A stretch of 34,146 bases of DNA from a candidate division CPR2 bacterium GW2011_GWC2_39_10 (GTDB lineage: Bacteria > Patescibacteriota > CPR2). Location: positions 1-34,146 of the forward strand of contig LBVV01000012.1 of assembly GCA_000993275.1 (NCBI GenBank), read 5' to 3'. Below the pieces are notes generated by a model that ran no database searches, had not been told where the DNA came from, and was given only the letters and a program-made list of their open reading frames with translations. Positions 57 to 33,469 of this stretch are shown here, in pieces (position 1 is the stretch's first letter; every line of letters starts with the position of its first letter). Both the position numbers and the translations under genes were made by a program.

Positions 57-761
57 ATGAAATATTGGGGAAATAGCCTCACAAAAACCGCATTAAGCCT
101 TATAATGCTATTGATTGGAGACAAAATGGAAATATTAGAAGTTTTTGATTTAGATGGCAATCATATTGGGGAACAAGAAAGGAAATCTTTTTACGCAGAA
201 ACTAAAGCCGAATTTTTGGAAATGGGTAGGGTTTCAAGACAGGTAAAAACTATTCGGCTTATGCTTATGAACTCAGACGGTCGGATTTATGTCCAAAAAA
301 GAAGCAAACTAAAGAATGAAAATCCGGGTCTTTACGATAAAACGATTGGAGGCCATGTATCAAAAGGTCATTCATATGAGCTTACGGTAACAAAGGAATG
401 TGCCGAAGAGCTTGGATTTCCGGCAGCAGTTATGCCAAATGACCAATTTGTGCAGGCTGTTAGTAATACCGATCTAAATATTATTGGTCTTTTTAAAGAG
501 ATTGAAGTTGTTAATAGTTATTTATCAACAAGAATAAGCAAAGACGGTACTAGTTTTGCACAGTCATATTTAAGTGCTTTCTTTGTGGGTTATTATGATG
601 GTCCGATTAAATTCTCGGATGGTGAAAGCTCCGGAATCGAAGTGTTTTCAATGGACGAGCTCGAAGAAGATATTAAAAACAATCCACAAAAATACACTAA
701 AGATTTGATATATTTTATTTCTACATACAAAGAGTACTTAGTACCGATTAAGAAGAATTAA
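57..761 (+). CDS. NUDIX hydrolase. True start may be the internal Met at 126.
   Basis: Nudix box GGHVSKGHSYELTVTKECAEELG (GX5EX7REUXEEXGU-like). A rho-independent terminator follows at 807-838. Confidence 0.65.
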   Translation: MKYWGNSLTKTALSLIMLLIGDKMEILEVFDLDGNHIGEQERKSFYAETKAEFLEMGRVSRQVKTIRLMLMNSDGRIYVQKRSKLKNENPGLYDKTIGGHVSKGHSYELTVTKECAEELGFPAAVMPNDQFVQAVSNTDLNIIGLFKEIEVVNSYLSTRISKDGTSFAQSYLSAFFVGYYDGPIKFSDGESSGIEVFSMDELEEDIKNNPQKYTKDLIYFISTYKEYLVPIKKN

Positions 762-3320: not shown

Positions 3321-3740
3321 ATGAATGAAGTAGAATTATTGGAAATATTTACAGATGGGGGAGCAAGAGGAAACCCGGGGCCTGCCGGTATTGGCGTGGT
3401 TTTTCGTGTTAAAGGCACAACCATTGCTTCTTTTAAGGAATATATTGGCGAAACCACTAATAATCAGGCGGAATACAAGGCCGTTTTGTTAGCCTTAAAG
3501 CATCTCAAAGATTTTCATTACAAGGCAGTTAATTTTTATTTGGATAGTCTGTTGGTCGTAAATCAGGTAAACGGCATTTATAAAGTTAAAAATGAGGAAT
3601 TAAGACCGTTGTACCAACAGATTAAAGACAATTTATTTTTCGAAAACGTTAAATTTCAGTATATCCCTCGGGAAAAAAATCAGGAGGCCGATAGATTAGT
3701 AAACCAGGCTATTGATGAGCATTTAAAAAACCAATCTTGA
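3321..3740 (+). CDS. rnhA: Ribonuclease HI family protein
   Basis: FTDGGARGNPGPAGIGVV RNase H fold N-terminus and a conserved ...EADRLVNQA C-terminus. Confidence 0.75.
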   Translation: MNEVELLEIFTDGGARGNPGPAGIGVVFRVKGTTIASFKEYIGETTNNQAEYKAVLLALKHLKDFHYKAVNFYLDSLLVVNQVNGIYKVKNEELRPLYQQIKDNLFFENVKFQYIPREKNQEADRLVNQAIDEHLKNQS

Positions 3741-3769
3741 CAAATTGTTAATAAAAGTATATTATATTT

Positions 3770-4290
3770 TTGCTTAGTCAGCTGGATGGTCGCCCAAACC
3801 CAATGCTTCGCATTGGAAGCACTAAATTCTAAATCACAAATTCTAAACAAATTCAAATGATCAAAAAACTAAAAAAATGTTTAGAGATTATAAATTAGGA
3901 TTTAGAATTTTCATTGCGTAGCAATGGTTAGGGGAGGAAAGTCCGGGCACCGTAGAGCAGGATGGTTCCTAACGGGAACCGGGAGTACATTGTTTGTGTT
4001 TGTTCTTAAGACAAATTTAAGCAATCAAGTCTAGGGAAAGTGCCACAGAAACAAAACCGCTCCGACTTTACGTCGGAGTAAGGGTGAAAAGTGAGGAAGT
4101 AAGACGCCTCTCTCGTCATGGTGACATGAACGAGTGGTAAACCCCATTCGGTGCAAGGCCGGTGGACTAATTAAACTAACTATCTGCTCGATAGGGTTTA
4201 GGCAGTCCGGCCGCATGAGGCTAATGGCAACATTAGTCCTAGATAGATGATCATTTAAACAGAACCCGGCTTATAGGCTGGCTGAGCAAC
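3770..4290 (+). ncRNA. rnpB: RNase P RNA (bacterial type A) with an atypical ~87-nt AT-rich insertion after P3
   Basis: P1 pairing ttgcttagtcagc (3770-3782) with gctggctgagcaa (4277-4289). P3 hairpin ccaatgc-UUCG-gcattgg. P4 5' strand GGAAAGTCCGGGCACC at ~3930. gtaaaccccattcggtgcaaggcc present. P4 3' strand ACAGAACCCGGCTTA at ~4256. Confidence 0.8.
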
Positions 4291-4292
4291 CT

Positions 4293-4325
4293 AAAAACCA
4301 CTCCCGAAGAGTGGTTTTTAGGTTT
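4293..4325 (+). terminator. Rho-independent terminator after rnpB
   Basis: aaaaaccactc-ccgaa-gagtggttttt perfect hairpin followed by a T-tract. Confidence 0.7.
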
Positions 4326-4379
4326 TGCTTCAGACTAAGAACTAAATATGCTAGTATTGGTATGATAAAAGGAGATGAA

Positions 4380-5456
4380 ATGATTAACAAAGAAAGGTTG
4401 ACCCAAAACTTTCTTAAGCTTGTTCAGATTGATAGTGAGTCAGGCGAGGAAGAAAATATTATTTCTTATTTAAAGGATGAGCTAAAAAGGTTAGGTTTTA
4501 ATTCCGAGATAGATAAAACGGGAAACCTTGTTGGCTGTAATTCTAATGAGCCAAAACTTTTATTACTAGCTCATGTTGATACTGTCAAACCCGGTAAGAA
4601 AATTAAGCCTATTGTAACCGAAGATGGAATTGTTAAAACTGATGGATCGACAATTTTGGGAGGTGATAATAAGAGTGGTATCGCAGCAATTTTAGAGATA
4701 TTAGAACAAATAAATGAAAATAATATAAAGGCTAATTTAGAAATTGCTTTCACGGTTCAAGAAGAGACCGGCCTTATAGGTTCGGCTAATCTTGATGTTT
4801 CCAAGATCAAATCAAAAAATGCCATTAATTTAGATGGTAAATTTGGTAATGTTGATTCTACCGAGCCAGCAATTATGCAATTCGATATAGTAATTAACGG
4901 CAAGGCAGCTCATGCTGGTCTGGCTCCAGAAAATGGCATAGACGCTGTCAAAATAGCTGCTAATGCTATTTCGGAGATGGAATTGGGGCGAATAGACGAT
5001 GAGACAACAGCCAATGTTGGATTAATAAAAGGTGGAGCGGCTAGAAATATTGTGCCGGAAAAGATAATTATTGAAGCAGAGGTTAGAAGTCGAAATGATG
5101 AGAAATTTAAGAAAGTATGTGAACATACTAAAAAAGTCTTTGAGACAGCAACTAAAGAGTACGGTGGTAAGATTGAGATAAATTGCATGCAAAGAAGCCG
5201 TATTTATTCATTGAGCAGAGATCAATATATTGTTGATGTTATTATCAAAAGTTTCCAGAAGAACGGTAGGGAAGCAAATTTTATTCCTAGTGGAGGCATC
5301 ACGGACGCAAATAACATGAATTATTTTGGAATCCAGTGTGTTACTGCGGGAGTTGGCGGTGAAAACATTCATTCCACGGAAGAAACTTTGAAGATTGATG
5401 ACTTGATATTGGGAACCCAAATTATTTATGATGCTGTGAAGGAGATCGCCATTTAA
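4380..5456 (+). CDS. M20 family metallopeptidase (PepT/ArgE-like)
   Basis: M20 motifs AHVDTV, GGDNKSG, QEETG and a late His (ENIHSTEE). Start moved to ATG 4380 (MINKERL), which has AAAGGAG upstream. The track start at 4311 lies inside the rnpB terminator. Confidence 0.7.
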   Translation: MINKERLTQNFLKLVQIDSESGEEENIISYLKDELKRLGFNSEIDKTGNLVGCNSNEPKLLLLAHVDTVKPGKKIKPIVTEDGIVKTDGSTILGGDNKSGIAAILEILEQINENNIKANLEIAFTVQEETGLIGSANLDVSKIKSKNAINLDGKFGNVDSTEPAIMQFDIVINGKAAHAGLAPENGIDAVKIAANAISEMELGRIDDETTANVGLIKGGAARNIVPEKIIIEAEVRSRNDEKFKKVCEHTKKVFETATKEYGGKIEINCMQRSRIYSLSRDQYIVDVIIKSFQKNGREANFIPSGGITDANNMNYFGIQCVTAGVGGENIHSTEETLKIDDLILGTQIIYDAVKEIAI

Positions 5457-5525: not shown

Positions 5526-5726
5526 TTAGTGGCACCCACTACAGCCGCCGCATCCGCCAGACCCGCAGCCGTGTCCGGTTGATTTGGAGGAAAATGAACT
5601 TACGGCCACCTTAGTAATTTTTTTACTATTGCAAGAAGGACAAGCCGCTTTACCTTCGGAATTAGGGTGTATTAAAAGTTCAAAGTCTGCACAACACTCG
5701 CTGCAATGGTATTCAAAAAGAGGCAT
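5526..5726 (-). CDS. FmdB-family zinc-ribbon protein
   Basis: [16 protein letters not shown]...CPSCNS CxxC pairs and a Gly/Cys-rich tail. Its start overlaps the rplT stop in the sequence TAATG. Confidence 0.7.
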   Translation of the reverse strand: MPLFEYHCSECCADFELLIHPNSEGKAACPSCNSKKITKVAVSSFSSKSTGHGCGSGGCGGCSGCH

Positions 5727-6070
5727 TATTTTTTAATTTCCTTAACAACCGCTTCAAAGGCGTGAGGTTTTCTAACAGCAAGTTCGGCCAAAGTTTTTCT
5801 ATCTAACTTAATTCCCGCCTTTTTTAAGCCGCCAATAAATTTGCTGTAAGATAAGTCATAGCCCGTTAAAGCTGCATTTATTCTGGTGATCCAAAGGCTC
5901 CGAAAATCTCTTTTTCGCGTTTTTCGGTCACGATATTGGTAAGTCCATGCCTTAAGTAGGGCTTCTTTAGCCTTTTTTACGCTTGTTCTTCTAAGACCCT
6001 TCATGCCTTTAGTGGCTTTTAAAATTTTCTTATGTTTTCGTTTGGTAACGGTTCCGCGCTTAACTCTCAT
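5726..6070 (-). CDS. rplT: 50S ribosomal protein L20
   Basis: [22 protein letters not shown]... is the canonical L20 sequence. Confidence 0.9.
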
Positions 6071-9064: not shown

Positions 9065-9160
9065 TTTAGGAAACAGTAACCAGTAACCAGGAAGCAAAGA
9101 AATAGTATTGTCCCGATGTGTCTATTCAGCACACACCGGGTGTGTGCAGTACATAATTTA

Positions 9161-9283
9161 GAATTAAGAATAACGAATTATGAATCAGGTATAGAAATGA
9201 TGAATACAGAATAAAGAAAGAAAAAACTAAATTCTAAATTCAAGATTTCCATTCTTGGAATTTTATACGAGATTATTTATTCT
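9161..9283. repeat. AT-rich dispersed repeat, copy A (~120 bp)
   Basis: About 80% identical to 13863-13969: gaattaagaataa(c/t)gaattatgaat...gaataaa(g)aaagaaaa...attctaa...cattcttgg...tttatac...tttattct. Confidence 0.6.
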
Positions 9284-9299
9284 TCTTTTTTAACTGGCG

Positions 9300-13849: not shown

Positions 13850-13862
13850 GACAGAATTAAGA

Positions 13863-13969
13863 ATAATGAATTATGAATTAAGTATGTCAATGTAGAATAA
13901 AAGAAAGAAAACTATATTCTAATATTCCATATTCCCATTCTTGGGGCTTTATACTAAATTCTTTATTCT
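13863..13969. repeat. AT-rich dispersed repeat, copy B
   Basis: Homologous to 9161-9283. Confidence 0.6.
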
Positions 13970-13997
13970 GTATTAGTTCTGTGCTAGAATAATCGGC

Positions 13998-15266
13998 ATG
14001 AAATATTTTATTTTAGTTTTGGGCTGCCAAATGAATAATTCTGATGCTCTGAGAATAGAGACGGTTCTAAACGGCTTGAGATATGAAAAAACGGGGAAAG
14101 AAAAAGATGCTGATTTGATTGTGGCAGTTGCTTGCTCCGTTCGGCAATCCGCCATTGACCGAATTTACGGCAAGGTTAGAAATTGGCAAAAGGAAAAAAA
14201 TAAAAGAAAGCTTGTAACGGTTTTAACCGGATGCGTACTTCCGGCAGACAAGAAAAAATTTTCCAAAGTTTTTGATTTGGTTTTTAATATCGAAAACCTG
14301 CCATTGCTTTCTAAAATGCTTAATAATTTAGAAGAAGCAAATGTTAAGGAAAGAGGGGAGTATTTAAAGCTAAAATCCATGCATAGCTCCGGCTTCCAAT
14401 CTCTTGTTCCTATAATGACGGGATGTAATAATTTTTGTGCTTACTGCGCCGTTCCTTTTACCCGTGGCCGGGAATATTCAAGACCGATTGAAGATATTAT
14501 TTCAGAAGTAAAAGAACTTGTAGAAAATGGCTGCAAAGAAATAACCTTGCTTGGCCAAAACGTTAATTCTTACGGAAATGATAAAAAAGATTTGCCGAAT
14601 TTTGCCGAACTTTTATCGAAAATCAATGATGTTCCGGGCGATTTTTGGATTAGATATATTACTTCGCATCCCAAGGATATGTCCGATGAACTGATCAAAA
14701 AATTTGTTCAGTGTTCAAAGGTTTGCGGATATTTGCATCTCCCATTGCAAGCGGGAAGCGACCAAGTCCTAAAAAACATGAATCGTAATTATACGTATGA
14801 GCATTATAAAGATTTGATAGAAAAAGTAAGAGCTGAAAAGTTGGATATTGCTATTTCAACCGATATCATCGTGGGCTTTCCGGGGGAGACAATTGAACAA
14901 TTTGAGGATTCGATGAAAGCTTTTGGGGAAATTAAATATGACATGGCTTACATCGCTCAGTATTCTCCGCGCTCCGGCACTAAGGCCGCTACTTTTGACG
15001 ACAATGTAGATAAAAAAGAAAAGAAACGCAGACTAAAGGTCCTTACCAAAATTTTAGCGGGTACCGCATTGGAAAAAAATAAAAAATATGTCGGTAAAAC
15101 GGAAAAAGTTTTGGCGGAAAAATTTGAGAAAGGGTTATTATTCGGTCATACCGATTCTTTCAAATTGGTTGCAATCTCCGGAGGAAGTAAGAATTATGTC
15201 GGCCAGTTTGTTATGGTAAAAATTATATCTGCAAACCCCTGGGCGCTAGAAGGAAAATGTCTATGA
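13998..15266 (+). CDS. miaB: tRNA-i6A37 methylthiotransferase (radical SAM MTTase, MiaB)
   Basis: N-terminal LGCQMN, radical-SAM CNNFCAYC and a C-terminal TRAM region. Adjacent to miaA. Confidence 0.8.
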   Translation: MKYFILVLGCQMNNSDALRIETVLNGLRYEKTGKEKDADLIVAVACSVRQSAIDRIYGKVRNWQKEKNKRKLVTVLTGCVLPADKKKFSKVFDLVFNIENLPLLSKMLNNLEEANVKERGEYLKLKSMHSSGFQSLVPIMTGCNNFCAYCAVPFTRGREYSRPIEDIISEVKELVENGCKEITLLGQNVNSYGNDKKDLPNFAELLSKINDVPGDFWIRYITSHPKDMSDELIKKFVQCSKVCGYLHLPLQAGSDQVLKNMNRNYTYEHYKDLIEKVRAEKLDIAISTDIIVGFPGETIEQFEDSMKAFGEIKYDMAYIAQYSPRSGTKAATFDDNVDKKEKKRRLKVLTKILAGTALEKNKKYVGKTEKVLAEKFEKGLLFGHTDSFKLVAISGGSKNYVGQFVMVKIISANPWALEGKCL

Positions 15267-15332
15267 TAATGTCAAATTTCAAATATCAAATGCCAAATAA
15301 AATTCAAATGCTAAAAATCCTAAATACTAAGC

Positions 15333-15366
15333 ACCTGTCTCGACTGGCGTCTTGCCAAGGCGGACC
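15333..15366. repeat. GC-rich hairpin repeat, copy 2 (degenerate)
   Basis: acctgtctcgactggcgtcttgccaaggcggacc shares the CCTGTCTCG and CCAAGGCGG halves with 6311-6343 and 33735-33787. Confidence 0.45.
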
Positions 15367-15551
15367 AAATTCTAAACAAATAATAATATCAAATGTTCTA
15401 AACGTTTTAATAACTGAGATTCTTGACCCATCGGGTCATCAACCGAAGGTTGAGAAATTGTTTAGTATTTAGGTATTAGGATTTATAATTTTAAGTAGTT
15501 TATCATTTTTTTGTCTATTAATTAATTCGTAAAAAACGTTAAAATATAATC

Positions 15552-16445
15552 ATGGAGAAACCTATGATTGTCATTATTGGTCCTACGGCGAGCGGAAAAA
15601 CTTCGCTTTCTATTAATCTTGCCAAGAAATTTAATGGCGAGATTGTTAACGCGGATTCTCAAAACGTTTATCGGGAAATGGACATTGGTACGGCTAAACC
15701 GAGTATTGAGGAACAACAGGAAGTGCCGCATCACATGTTAGATATTGTGGACCCGGATCAGGAATTTAATGTTGCGATTTATAAAAAAATGGCTAAGGAG
15801 GCTATTGGTAAAATTCAAGAAGCGGGAAAAATACCTTTTTTGGTTGGTGGAACCGGACTTTATATTGACGCCTTAATTTATAACTATCATATTCCGGAAG
15901 TAAAACCGGATAACAAATTAAGGGCTGAACTTTCTTTAAAGGATAACGATGAGTTGGCGGCAATTTTGGATGAGTTAGACCCGGAGGCGGCCGGCACCAT
16001 TGATCCTAATAACCGTAGGCGGGTAATTAGAGCAATAGAAATTATTAAAGGCTCCGGTAAGCCACTTTCGGCCATGCGGTCAATGGAAGGCAAGCCGGAA
16101 AATGTTTTAATGTTGGGGACGGCTTTTTATGAAAAAGAAGAGCTTTACGAGAGAATAAACTTGAGGGTAGATCAGATGTTTGAGGAGGGTTTTTTGGAGG
16201 AATTTAAAGAACTTGCCGATAGCTATCCTTGGGATATTCCGGGTTTTAATGCCTTGGGATATCGTCAACTTGCCTTATATTTCAAAAAAGAGATTGATTT
16301 GTCTATGACAATGGAGACAATCAAAAAAGAAACCAGAAATTACGCCAAACGCCAGATGACATGGTTTAAGAGGAACAAGGATATTGTTTGGGTGAGAGAC
16401 GAATTTCAAGCTTTCGATATAGTTGAGAAATTTATTGCTCAATAG
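15552..16445 (+). CDS. miaA: tRNA dimethylallyltransferase
   Basis: IVIIGPTASGKTSLSINLAKKFNGEIVNADSQNVYREMDIGTAKP is the canonical MiaA N-terminus. Confidence 0.85.
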   Translation: MEKPMIVIIGPTASGKTSLSINLAKKFNGEIVNADSQNVYREMDIGTAKPSIEEQQEVPHHMLDIVDPDQEFNVAIYKKMAKEAIGKIQEAGKIPFLVGGTGLYIDALIYNYHIPEVKPDNKLRAELSLKDNDELAAILDELDPEAAGTIDPNNRRRVIRAIEIIKGSGKPLSAMRSMEGKPENVLMLGTAFYEKEELYERINLRVDQMFEEGFLEEFKELADSYPWDIPGFNALGYRQLALYFKKEIDLSMTMETIKKETRNYAKRQMTWFKRNKDIVWVRDEFQAFDIVEKFIAQ

Positions 16446-16577
16446 TCTTTAATTCAAAAATCAAATCTCAAAAGTCAAAATGATAAATTAAAAGTCAAAA
16501 TTTTTTAATTATTAATTATCATTATGATCTTTGATTTTTGCATTTTGATTTGGTCTATTTTGAGTTAAAATAGAACC

Positions 16578-18926: not shown

Positions 18927-19060
18927 GCACAAGTCATTTACTTTTGGTCATAATTTTGCTATATTATGTAAGTTATAGATAGGAAGCAGGAATCAGAAAC
19001 CAGGAAACACTTGAGTCGTAATATTTTCTAAATTCTTTTGCTTATTGTTTATTGACGTGC

Positions 19061-19135
19061 GGGCCGGTAGCTCAGCGGCAGAGCAGTTGCCTCTTAAGCA
19101 ATTGGTCGTGGGTTCGAATCCCACCCGGCCCTCCA
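19061..19135 (+). tRNA. tRNA-Lys, anticodon CUU
   Basis: Acceptor GGGCCGG/CCGGCCC, D-arm GCUC-AGCGGCA-GAGC, anticodon stem GUUGC/GCAAU with loop CUCUUAA, T-arm GUGGG-UUCGAAU-CCCAC, encoded CCA. Confidence 0.8.
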
Positions 19136-31135: not shown

Positions 31136-33469
31136 ATGAAAAGAGTTCAAATAAGTGTAATTGGGATTGTACAGGGGGTTGGTTTTAGGCCTCTTACTTT
31201 TAATTTGGCTAAAAAATTCAATTTGGCTGGTTTTGTTTTAAATGATTCCCTGGGAGTTAAAATTGAGATTGAGGGAAGGGCGGAGGATGTAGACAATTTT
31301 ATTTTAGAACTGAAAAACAATCCCCCAAAATCTTCAAAAATTGAAAGAATTAGTATTAAGGAAATTGATTTTAAAAAAGAGACGAGTTTTTTAATAAAGC
31401 AAAGTAAAAATACTAATAACCGCCAAAATATTTCCTCAGATTTGGCGTTATGCAAGGATTGTGAAAAAGAATTATTTGATCCCAAAAACAGGCGTTACCG
31501 CTATCCGTTTATTAACTGCTATAACTGCGGGCCGCGTTTTACGATTATTAGAAAAATGCCTTATGACCGTAAGAATACGACAATGGCAGATTTTAAGATG
31601 TGTCCGGAGTGCGAGGCGGAGTATAAAGACCCTTCTAATAGGCGTTTTCATGCCGAGCCTATTGCTTGTTCAAAGTGCGGGCCGGTAATTGCAGGAATCA
31701 GGAATCAGGAATCAGGAATCAACGTAATAGGCGAAGAAGCGATTCAGGAGACCATAAAGTTTATTAAAGAAGGCAAGATAGTGACCATTAAAGGGTTGGG
31801 AGGGTTTCAACTGGCATGTGACGCTACTAACGAAAAAGCCGTATCCGAACTAAGAAAAAGAAAAAACCGCCCAACAAAGCCCCTGGCTTTGATGGTTAGA
31901 GATTTGGAAGTGGCCGAGGAATACACAAAATTTCAAAAGGATTCGACCGTTTTAGAGGGTCTAACCCTCTTGGGGCAAGAGTCGCCTATTGTCCTTCTTG
32001 AGAAAAGAGGAAGCGATGTTTCGAATCTTATTGCTCCTAATCAACAAGATCTCGGAATAATGCTTCCCTATACGCCGCTTCATAAACTGATTTTTGAAAA
32101 CTTAGAAATTGCGCTGGTTATGACTTCGGGTAATATAAGCGGAGAGCCTATTATCACAGACAATAATGAGGCTTTGGAGAAGTTGGCCAAAATTGCTGAT
32201 TATTTTTTAATGAATGATCGAGATATTCATTCCGGTTATGACGATTCGGTGGTAAAGGTGGTGGATGGGGAAGTGCAGGTTATTAGAATGGCTAGGGGAT
32301 ATGCGCCAAAAAAAAATACTATTAATGATAATTTACCGCCCATGCTGGCTGTTGGCGGGGATTTAAAAAGTACTTTTGCTTTAGCTTGTGGTAACGAAGT
32401 TTATATAAGTCAGTATCTCGGGGATCTTCAAGGTTTTGATAATTTAAAAAGGTTCGAGGAAACGATATCCCTATATCAAAACCTATTCAAAATTAAACCC
32501 AAGTATATTGTTCATGATTTACATCCCGGCTATTTTTCAACAAAATGGGCTATAAAGCAGGGGATAGAAACTATTGCAGTCGGGCATCACAAAGCTCACA
32601 TTGCCAGCGTTATAGCAGAGCATCAAGTAAAAGAGCAGGTAGTTGGCGTTGCGTTTGATGGCTTGGGTTATGGGGAAGATGGTAATTTATGGGGCGGAGA
32701 GTTTTTTGTGGGTGATTTGGGCAGCTTGGAAAGAGCGGCCCATTTTGATTATTTTGCTCTGCCGGGTGGCGATGTGGCCGCTAAGGAACCATGGCGGGTG
32801 GCGGTATCGCTTTTATTTAAGGCAGGAGTTTCCGAACAAAAAATTAAATCTCTGTTTCCGAATAAGGATTTTATCAGCATAAAAAAGTTGATCGAACTAA
32901 AAATTAATTCGCCATTAACTTCAAGCGCGGGTAGAATATTTGACGCGGTGGCGGCTATTTTAGGCTTTGATGGACCTGTGACTTATGAAGGTGAAGCGGC
33001 AATGTGGCTAGAGAATTTAGCCTCTTTTTCTTGTCATTCGGAACTTGATTCAGAATCCTATCGTGCATCCCGAGAAGCTGGATTCCGGGTCAAGCCCGGA
33101 ATGACAAATGGGGATGGTTTTTATCCCCTTATTCTTAATACCCGAACAATTAATTTAGACAAAATGTTTGTTCAAATTATTAAGGATTTAGAAAACGGTG
33201 TTAAAAAAGAAACTGTTGCTGCTATGTTTCAAAACACTATTGTTGAGATAATTTTACAAAAAGCTGCTAATTTGGCCAGCGAGAATCAAATAAATGCGGT
33301 TGCATTATCCGGCGGCGTGTTCCAGAATAGTTTTGTCTTAAGCGTATCCGTTAAAAAACTAAGAGCAAAAGGCCTAAAAGTCTATTATAATAAAGAAGTC
33401 CCCATAAACGATGGCGGAATTGCTTTAGGCCAAGTTATTCTGGGAGCAAAATACTTGAAGAGGGTCTAA
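31136..33469 (+). CDS. hypF: [NiFe]-hydrogenase maturation carbamoyltransferase HypF
   Basis: Acylphosphatase VQGVGFRP, two CxxC-x18-CxxC zinc fingers, YrdC domain (IKGLGGFQLACDA) and Kae1-like C-terminus (LSGGVFQN). Contains the in-frame repeat insertions listed in the findings. Confidence 0.85.
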   Translation: MKRVQISVIGIVQGVGFRPLTFNLAKKFNLAGFVLNDSLGVKIEIEGRAEDVDNFILELKNNPPKSSKIERISIKEIDFKKETSFLIKQSKNTNNRQNISSDLALCKDCEKELFDPKNRRYRYPFINCYNCGPRFTIIRKMPYDRKNTTMADFKMCPECEAEYKDPSNRRFHAEPIACSKCGPVIAGIRNQESGINVIGEEAIQETIKFIKEGKIVTIKGLGGFQLACDATNEKAVSELRKRKNRPTKPLALMVRDLEVAEEYTKFQKDSTVLEGLTLLGQESPIVLLEKRGSDVSNLIAPNQQDLGIMLPYTPLHKLIFENLEIALVMTSGNISGEPIITDNNEALEKLAKIADYFLMNDRDIHSGYDDSVVKVVDGEVQVIRMARGYAPKKNTINDNLPPMLAVGGDLKSTFALACGNEVYISQYLGDLQGFDNLKRFEETISLYQNLFKIKPKYIVHDLHPGYFSTKWAIKQGIETIAVGHHKAHIASVIAEHQVKEQVVGVAFDGLGYGEDGNLWGGEFFVGDLGSLERAAHFDYFALPGGDVAAKEPWRVAVSLLFKAGVSEQKIKSLFPNKDFISIKKLIELKINSPLTSSAGRIFDAVAAILGFDGPVTYEGEAAMWLENLASFSCHSELDSESYRASREAGFRVKPGMTNGDGFYPLILNTRTINLDKMFVQIIKDLENGVKKETVAAMFQNTIVEIILQKAANLASENQINAVALSGGVFQNSFVLSVSVKKLRAKGLKVYYNKEVPINDGGIALGQVILGAKYLKRV

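Follow-up and report, generated by a model that had tools for sequence, protein, structure and literature searches.

To our knowledge, the origin and spread of the intervening sequences (IVSs) of 23S rRNA have remained unexplained since their discovery. Vioque (1997, in NAR 25:3471) is said to have described 7-nt repeats known as STRRs in helix P12 of rnpB, the RNase P RNA gene, of heterocyst-forming cyanobacteria; these are reportedly plain tandem arrays that are retained in the RNA and dispensable in vitro. In the Candidate Phyla Radiation (CPR), many short inserts without open reading frames (ORFs) at two 23S IVS sites are probable IVSs, in a study that does not mention RNase P (Tsurumaki et al. 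2024, PMC11270868). In addition, the RNase P RNAs of CPR bacteria carry large helix extensions that defeat the Rfam model, so that manual refolding and lowered thresholds were needed (Lui et al. 2021, PMC8172020), and in the RNase P RNA of Thermodesulfatator indicus an expansion of helix P12 is excised in vivo, leaving a fragmented functional ribozyme (PMC9945441). Here we analysed a stretch of 34,146 nt from the groundwater candidate division CPR2 bacterium GW2011_GWC2_39_10 (contig LBVV01000012.1, the window), in which rnpB has approximately 127 extra bases (3800-3926) filling the apical loop of helix P3. This block is very probably a single copy of an IVS-like insertion element, quasi-palindromic in sequence, that has replaced the P3 apical loop.

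The covariance model RF00010 has one match in the window, at 197 bits against a gathering threshold of 100, and the sequence has the two P4 strands as well as the conserved regions (GAGGAAAGUCCGGGC and ACAGAACCCGGCUUA), which identifies a bacterial type-A RNase P RNA gene, as a preliminary description of this DNA had stated. The same alignment misplaces the 5' end of the gene at 3895 and contains many non-canonical pairs in P1 and P3. The distance from P2 to P4 is approximately 140 nt, compared with a usual 20 or so, and instead of a simple P3 hairpin between P2 and P4 there is a stem (3793-3799 with 3928-3933) that encloses the 127-nt element. This CCCAAAC/UUAGGG stem is the positional counterpart of the short P3 of a relative, locus L137 (CCCUUAA/UUGGGGG). 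The preliminary description had placed an extra AT-rich segment of about 87 nt between P3 and P4. The segment is real, but it is longer than that and lies within the P3 apical loop, and the two small hairpins that had been taken for P3 and a P3-like element, ccaatgc-ttc-gcattgg (3800-3816) and cattgc-gta-gcaatg (3912-3926), exist as the terminal clamps of the insert.

Between the clamps, Tandem Repeats Finder detected a period of 7 nt at 3822-3847 (3.7 copies of the unit CTAAATT), and the perfect 12-bp inverted repeat reported earlier is exact (AAATTCTAAATC, 3824-3835 on the plus strand and 3899-3910 on the minus strand). The core continues into an inner helix (3841-3849 with 3878-3886) and a 28-nt A-rich loop. 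The region 3796-3935 folds at -35.8 kcal/mol (z -5.5), a value that none of 200 shuffles equalled. We compared six independent assemblies from ENA and JGI samples, with the RNase H gene on PRJNA268031 and related contigs, and all six same-species assemblies share the insert, one of them with a 17-nt apical deletion that removes the 3' strand of the inner helix. The insert is therefore genuine, and the population is fixed for it, with slight polymorphism at the apex. The core is intact, with no change in P4 or in the conserved regions, and the element-filled P3 is a peripheral variation that gives no ground for excluding this gene from the type-A RNase P family.

The comparison that carries the insertion reading is with a congener, locus L177 (contig family of L140), which shares 84-88% identity with the window in syntenic blocks and 93-95% in the rnpB core. 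This ortholog scores 214.5 bits with RF00010, and its P1-P3 are aligned without any non-canonical pair. Its P3 is a plain hairpin, CUCCG-UUUU-UGGGG, and its P12 holds a copy of the element with ends identical to those of the window P3 copy and 74% identity overall, whereas P12 of the window is a plain short hairpin. One congener thus has a short P3 and a filled P12, the other a filled P3 and a short P12, which indicates a recent, site-polymorphic acquisition and not a lineage-specific helix. As in IVSs, an extended stem-loop has taken the place of the tip of a peripheral stable-RNA helix, and filled sites in general replace the distal bases of the native helix.

Further relatives were found through homologues of the adjacent RNase H, which gave a graded CPR2 series of 78-62% identity that keeps the synteny L28, M50, NUDIX, RNase H, rnpB, L20, L35 and IF3. 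Comparing the extra segments of these rnpB genes all against all by local alignment, with dinucleotide-shuffle controls, we found that the window P3 insert is homologous to a segment in P9 of L129 (shuffle z 12.6; nhmmer E 1.2e-7) and more weakly to one in P9 of L137 (z 5.5; E 0.011). Since both small hairpins fall inside the alignment with L129, they are parts of the inserted module and not of P3. The distribution is sporadic, with a copy in P3 of the window, in P12 of L177 and in P9 of L129 and L137, none in L138 and three in L156.

The element also extends well beyond rnpB. The pattern TGCTNNGCAYTGGAANNNCYAAATT, taken from its conserved 5' end and run against metagenome contigs, gave 40 loci, of which five were chance matches in coding DNA; from the other loci we extracted about 30 non-redundant full copies of 77-184 nt. 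All have the same architecture: a 17-nt clamp, GAA, three to five 7-nt repeats, a variable loop, mirrored repeats and a second clamp. Each clamp is a hairpin of 7 bp and a triloop with the general consensus CCARUGC-NNN-GCAYUGG, the 5' clamp being CCAGTGC-TTC-GCACTGG and the second CCAGYGC-GRA-GCRCTGG among the copies. The repeat units are of the CTAAATT, CCAAATT or CGAAATC type, the two arms are mutually complementary, and the clamps are complementary to each other at 12-17 of 17 positions, as terminal inverted repeats are. A hidden Markov model (HMM) of the element halves, built without the window copy (consensus CCAGTGCTTCGCACTGGAAATTCTAAATTCTAAATTCTAAATTCTAAA), recovered the window insert at its two ends (E 1.9e-12 and 3.6e-9). 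Elsewhere in the window the model gave no signal above noise and no second clamp-bearing copy, and 871 kb of rnpB loci, taken from 117 other bacteria, yielded no match at E<1. A scan of viral contigs for the element likewise returned no matches.

Host genes of the copies were identified by Rfam and by alignment of the flanks to E. coli rrsB and rrlB (E. coli numbering is used throughout). Besides P3, P9, P12 and the P15-17 region of rnpB, they include 23S rRNA, 16S rRNA and a tRNA spacer (Table 1). The flanks of 13 copies align to 23S positions ~543 and ~1163/1186, which we take to be helices 25 and 45, where IVSs excised by RNase III are classically found; the family thus occupies IVS sites, although the window copy does not. 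The position ~1704-1770 is presumably helix 63. Two loci deserve separate mention. In L145 (222-402) the element fills the spacer of two tRNA genes, 4-9 nt from each, and the contig also has an annotated group I intron at a distance of about 700 nt. In L156 (minus strand, ~5533-6022 in reverse-complement coordinates) a single rnpB has three clamp elements, in P3, P9 and P12.

Selection on the clamps as hairpins is suggested by covariation. Under a model with two clamp hairpins, 97.5% of cells are paired and 25 show double changes, compared with 7.0 +/- 2.3 in shuffles, none of which reached that number in 500 trials. In clamp A, pair 4-14 occurs as GC (12), AU (5), CG (4) and UA (2) and is never unpaired, and clamp B covaries at pairs 4-14 and 5-13. 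A model that pairs the two clamps with each other in a single rod leaves its discriminating pairs unpaired in 10-11 of 23 sequences; RNAfold favours this fold and covariation disfavours it, and we rejected it. RNAalifold on 14 full copies independently recovered clamps A and B, with the arms paired as CUAA/UUAG blocks at 7-nt spacing. In L152 (9835-9860) a clamp-like hairpin, GCCAGUGCUAUGCGCUGGC, stands alone between P5 and P7 and lacks repeat arms, while a full element occupies the P15-17 region of the same rnpB; the hairpin may be what recombination between two clamps left behind.

The relationships among copies point to movement as well as inheritance. The nearest neighbours of several copies are copies at other sites of the same genome, at 88-95% identity; for example, the P3 and P12 copies of L156 are 95% identical, as are the L166 and L167 copies (23S ~543 and ~1163), and the same-genome copies of L154 (23S ~543 and ~1704) and of L158 are each 88% identical. 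On the other hand, in one set of related hosts the 23S ~1163 copies cluster according to site. Clustering by genome and by site together indicates both vertical descent and copying to new helix tips. On this basis the window element would have arrived recently and at the DNA level, copied from a copy in another stable-RNA gene or through ectopic recombination or gene conversion, and the spread of copies might involve either a hairpin-recognising enzyme or ectopic recombination. It may persist because the module folds by itself and, lying at a peripheral helix tip, is directed away from the catalytic core.

Several points weigh against this picture. The approximately 30 copies show neither a target-site duplication nor a flanking motif in common, and the window, which contains no transposase, homing endonuclease or RNase III gene, points to no mobility mechanism. 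Host taxonomy could be assigned for a minority of the metagenome copies only. The search pattern fixes most of one clamp, leaving the other clamp and position 4 free of ascertainment bias, although the clamp and the position outside this constraint still covary. For the window copy itself, RNAfold prefers one long rod (-39.8 kcal/mol) to the form with clamp hairpins (-32.5 kcal/mol). Its arms are also degenerate (11 bp, an 8x8 internal loop and 9 bp), and from this fold it is predicted to be a poorer RNase III substrate than most family members.

The alternative that survives best, which we nevertheless consider improbable, is a non-mobile one, in which helix tips grow in place by slippage of 7-nt units and the likeness between copies comes from ectopic gene conversion between stable-RNA genes rather than from transposition. 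Arrays of period 7 are indeed strongly enriched in the window (12, compared with 1.5 +/- 1.2 in block shuffles) and common in L129, but slippage in place does not make 17-nt clamps that are conserved across many hosts and unrelated helices. The high identity of same-genome copies is what concerted evolution would give, and the replacement of part of the native helix, rather than its mere interruption, suits conversion, as does the lack of a target-site duplication and of a nearby transposase; conversion, however, needs a homologous tract at the empty site, and none is visible in P3 of L177 or in P12 of the window. This alternative bears on the mechanism of spread alone and accepts that the segment was acquired secondarily.

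It is very unlikely that the segment is a vertically inherited, lineage-specific extension of P3 that serves RNase P through folding, protein binding or stability. Large helix extensions are known in CPR RNase P RNAs (PMC8172020), the segment is kept in all six assemblies of the species, and covariation of the clamps implies selection on structure. Against this, the empty P3 and filled P12 of L177 largely refute it, homologous copies lie in P9 of relatives, L137 and L138 have a plain short P3, the same element occurs in 23S and 16S rRNA genes and in a tRNA spacer, and the apex tolerates a 17-nt deletion. The helix tips of the relatives are so variable (Table 1) that the P3 extension cannot be called a conserved CPR2 helix. 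The preliminary description had held that a covarying extension shared by related genomes would speak for a structural helix of the lineage; covarying extensions are present in relatives, but in other helices, and they support the clamps rather than such a P3 helix.

The chance that the segment is a self-splicing or otherwise religated rnpB intron is slight. Group I introns are frequent in CPR rRNA and tRNA genes (PMC11270868; see also PMC13011429), and one lies near the element copy in L145, but the window has no match to an Rfam intron family, an AT-rich palindrome of 127 nt has neither the size nor the complexity of a group I or group II catalytic core, and the family occupies 23S ~543 and ~1163-1186, where known inserts are cut out without religation (PMC11270868). 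Finally, although metagenome assemblies may collapse or mis-join repeats, and a scaffold gap adjoins a 7-nt array upstream of rnpB in L129, it is next to inconceivable that an assembly error or a chimera among AT-rich repeats accounts for a sequence that is identical in six independent ENA and JGI assemblies and has homologues of the same architecture in dozens of unrelated contigs.

For an insertion element of this kind, two fates in the RNA come into question. By analogy with IVSs, the long AU-rich duplex may well be cut out by RNase III, leaving a nicked but functional RNase P RNA, although we stop short of calling this probable; excision would give a two-piece RNA held together by P1, P2, the base of P3 and P4. 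It is a serious possibility because the family sits at 23S IVS sites, because the P12 expansion of T. indicus is excised and because at least 90% of CPR genomes have kept rnc (PMC12641178). By a similar analogy, with the cyanobacterial STRRs, the element might with no less justification be carried as an inert extension of P3. The 17-nt deletion in one population variant is a sign that the apex is dispensable. A wider generalisation, which we regard as doubtful, is that one self-folding clamp-plus-7-nt-repeat family specifically colonises helix tips in every kind of CPR stable-RNA gene (23S, 16S, RNase P RNA and tRNA spacers), moves between them within a genome and is removed by RNase III, so that RNase P RNA becomes a non-covalent assembly of several pieces. 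If this were true, RNase P RNA would consist of two pieces in the window organism and of up to four in L156, and the covarying clamps would be a signal for insertion, excision or both.

Table 1. Features of the window rnpB, sites of element copies in host genes, and helix tips of rnpB in CPR2 relatives (L numbers denote loci)
Feature	Position	Strand	Basis or loci
rnpB, bacterial type-A RNase P RNA gene	3772-4288	+	RF00010 and hand pairing
Sigma-70-like rnpB promoter: TTGACA, 17-nt spacer, TATTAT	3737-3765	+	11 of 12 consensus matches; overlaps RNase H gene end
P1	3772-3783 with 4277-4288	+	paired by hand; agrees with clean L177 ortholog alignment
P2	3785-3791 with 4249-4255	+	paired by hand; agrees with clean L177 ortholog alignment
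Native P3 stem, 5' strand CCCAAAC	3793-3799	+	RNAfold pair probabilities 0.74-0.99; homologous to short P3 of L137 and L177
Clamp hairpin A, CCAAUGC-UUC-GCAUUGG	3800-3816	+	family HMM match 3800-3847, E 1.9e-12
AT-rich core: CTAAATT 7-nt repeats in 5' arm (3822-3847), mirrored 3' arm ending 3910	3817-3910	+	
17-nt deletion in one population variant (JGI 3300025309, locus L002)	3873-3889	+	six-assembly alignment
Clamp hairpin B, UCAUUGC-GUA-GCAAUGG	3911-3927	+	family HMM match 3927-3880 on the minus strand, E 3.6e-9
Native P3 stem, 3' strand UUAGGG	3928-3933	+	followed by J3/4-P4 sequence GAGGAAAGUCCGGGC
P4 strands	3936-3948 and ~4259-4272	+	5' strand GGAAAGUCCGGGC from 3936
P9, extended ~44 nt beyond Rfam consensus	3979-4031	+	44-nt insert in covariance-model alignment
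Terminator-like hairpin and T run, AAAAACCACUC-CCGAAG-AGUGGUUUUU	4290-4330	+	read from sequence
Element site	23S rRNA ~543		L154, L160, L165, L166, L144
Element site	23S rRNA ~1163/1186		L143, L144, L148, L159, L161, L164, L167, L173
Element site	23S rRNA ~1704/1770		L154, L158, L162, L170
Element site	23S rRNA 5' leader		L151
Element site	23S rRNA ~660 and ~2424		L158, L175
Element site	16S rRNA ~70-240		L157
Element site	tRNA spacer, between two tRNA genes		L145
Element site	rnpB P3		window, L156
Element site	rnpB P9		L129/L178, L137, L156
Element site	rnpB P12		L140/L177, L146, L156
Element site	rnpB P15-17 region		L152
rnpB helix tips	P3 +~130 nt; P9 +156 nt; P12 +~130 nt		L129
rnpB helix tips	P3 ~190 nt; P9 ~150 nt; P12 ~130 nt		L132
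rnpB helix tips	P3 +25 nt; P12 +~150 nt; P15-17 +~60 nt		L135
rnpB helix tips	P3 short; P9 +157 nt		L137
rnpB helix tips	P3, P9 and P12 compact; extra sequence in P15-17		L138

In the window, rnpB lies in the gene order NUDIX, L28, M50 peptidase, tRNA-Pro, GlyRS(-), RNase H(+), rnpB(+), M20 peptidase(+) and L20/L35/IF3(-). P1 starts (3772) about 7 nt downstream of a near-consensus promoter, and the transcription start was therefore placed at ~3772. The hairpin at the 3' end of the gene (4290-4330) was grouped with other terminator-like hairpins of the window as repeat family D1; a simple scan did not call it. The extension of P9 is shared almost base for base with L177. It may be a decayed copy of the element, an idea for which we found no statistical support (z 2.9, without a match to the family HMM); L129, L137 and L156, in contrast, have full elements at P9.

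Other routes to relatives were tried and abandoned. The motif GGAAAGTCCGGGNNNCGTAGAGCAG, a candidate probe for CPR2 rnpB, lacked lineage specificity, matching 117 loci in many phyla, and was kept as a negative control; its four matches in Patescibacteria have ordinary short P3 hairpins. Synteny with the M20 peptidase failed since the peptidase is located elsewhere in the relatives, and GlyRS, at about 75% identity across all Patescibacteria, is without power to discriminate among them. The M20 peptidase gene stands beside rnpB in the window only, in comparison with L177, L129 and L135, and a YkuD gene is found in L129 and L137. In the comparison of window positions 3740-5456, the surroundings of rnpB prove to be rearranged among the relatives: in L177 and L135 the gene has the opposite orientation with respect to RNase H and L20.

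We also found peculiarities within the rnpB loci of the relatives. In L129, the tips of P3 and P12 (12873-13009 and 13240-13378) carry a second, clamp-less element type, the two copies being about 80% identical over ~135 nt (z 28.7); a weaker resemblance between P3 and P12 is seen in L132 (z 4.7). Upstream of rnpB in L129 there is a perfect (AAATAGG)x8.9 array followed by the scaffold gap. The rnpB of L137 (2676-2800; Logan assembly, RNase H 78% identical) is apparently without the highly conserved GGGAAAGUGCCACAGAAA (P10/P11, J11/12), which is replaced by an AT-rich stretch ending in clamp-like sequence, whether as a true peculiarity of this gene or through mis-assembly.

The preliminary description had likened the rnpB segment to AT-rich repeats at 9225, 15365 and 13940 and proposed that a dispersed repeat had entered a structural RNA gene. 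The insertion is borne out by L177 and by the homologues in P9 of relatives, whereas kinship with these repeats is not. By blastn, nhmmer and shuffles, a common element family was rejected: nhmmer gave E 0.5-7, the best local alignment beat 99 of 100 shuffles (a marginal result), the repeats have no clamps, and the 7-nt unit CTAAATT, which recurs at 9227-9241, is all that is shared. The link is therefore one of repeat vocabulary and not of element family.

Tracts of period 7 in the window lie at 3822-3847, 9074-9090, 9155-9241, 13854-13880, 15268-15299, 16454-16519 and 31692-31721. Tracts of the CAGGAAN/CAGTAAC type lie at 1824-1852, 9068-9096, 18981-19009 and 31693-31721, one starting 9 nt past tRNA-Pro (1743-1815) and one ending about 50 nt before tRNA-Lys (19061-19135). 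A perfect (CAGGAAT)x4.3 array is found inside a HypF-like ORF (31136-33469), in a linker between domains, where slippage of the unit could shift the reading frame. Two intergenic blocks of approximately 120 nt each, at 9150-9290 and 13855-13975, are clearly alike (agaattaagaataaYgaattatgaat ... gaataaagaaagaaaa ... ccattcttgg ... ttttatac) and constitute a dispersed repeat family of their own, which has nothing but the CTAAATT unit in common with the rnpB insert. Between the miaB-like gene and miaA, a long inverted repeat (15298-15493, z -5.1) has 7-nt repeat arms that enclose several GC-rich hairpins; this block is 81-84% conserved in L177 at a different genomic position, and an Rfam scan of 15200-15600 gave no matches. 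Between miaA and a MurT-like gene, 16451-16544 contains a 43-nt imperfect inverted repeat of (TCAAAAA)n that may be a terminator or another repeat hairpin.

The element matters in several respects. It ties two oddities of CPR bacteria, the short rRNA inserts and the diverged RNase P RNAs with extended helices, to one defined family. It is a concrete, searchable motif for annotating CPR stable-RNA genes, of which the window, with P1-P3 mis-aligned by Rfam, is an example. On the excision reading an essential ribozyme should be fragmented as a matter of routine, a sharp prediction that existing groundwater metatranscriptomes could address. Conserved, covarying terminal hairpins and filled/empty pairs of congeners also offer a tractable system for studying how IVSs originate and spread.

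Among known systems, the 23S IVSs resemble the element in being AT-rich extended stem-loops without ORFs, at the tips of peripheral helices and sporadic among close relatives. They differ in host, rRNA as against RNase P RNA for the window copy, and in that RNase III cleavage is established for them and hypothetical here. We know of no enterobacterial, Campylobacter or Coxiella IVS described with 17-nt clamps and 7-nt repeat arms. STRRs likewise are genome-wide 7-nt tandem repeats that lengthen an rnpB helix, as CTAAATT does here (3822-3847 and, elsewhere in the window, 9227-9241). Unlike the plain arrays of STRRs, however, the window insert has mirrored arms and is bounded by clamps, and the module also occurs in rRNA. 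Miniature inverted-repeat transposable elements (MITEs), repetitive extragenic palindromic (REP)-like repeats and IS200/IS605-derived elements share with the family a small size, lack of coding capacity, multiple copies and hairpin-forming termini. The family resembles IS200/IS605 in lacking the target-site duplication that MITEs have. Copies of the family, in contrast to all of these, turned up only in stable-RNA genes and their spacers, with none in ordinary intergenic DNA of the window, and, unlike IS200/IS605 derivatives, the entire element is palindromic and the window has no transposase.

The P12 expansion of T. indicus, like the window insert, adds a hairpin to the end of a peripheral helix in a type-A RNase P RNA, and it is the precedent for the excision reading. 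It lies in P12 rather than P3, in another phylum and without a reported repeat or clamp architecture, and neither sharing with rRNA genes nor movement from helix to helix is known for it. The CPR extensions of Lui et al. 2021 (PMC8172020) concern the same superphylum and gene, with an Rfam mis-alignment like that of P1-P3 here, but those extensions (for example in P15) were treated as divergent structure, with no shared element family or link to rRNA. In the literature searched, we found no description of the family in RNase P RNA, of the clamp-plus-7-nt-repeat family itself or of its sharing between rRNA and rnpB. Each of the ingredients nevertheless has a precedent, in the 23S IVSs, the CPR rRNA inserts, the CPR RNase P extensions, the cyanobacterial 7-nt repeats and P12 of T. 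indicus.

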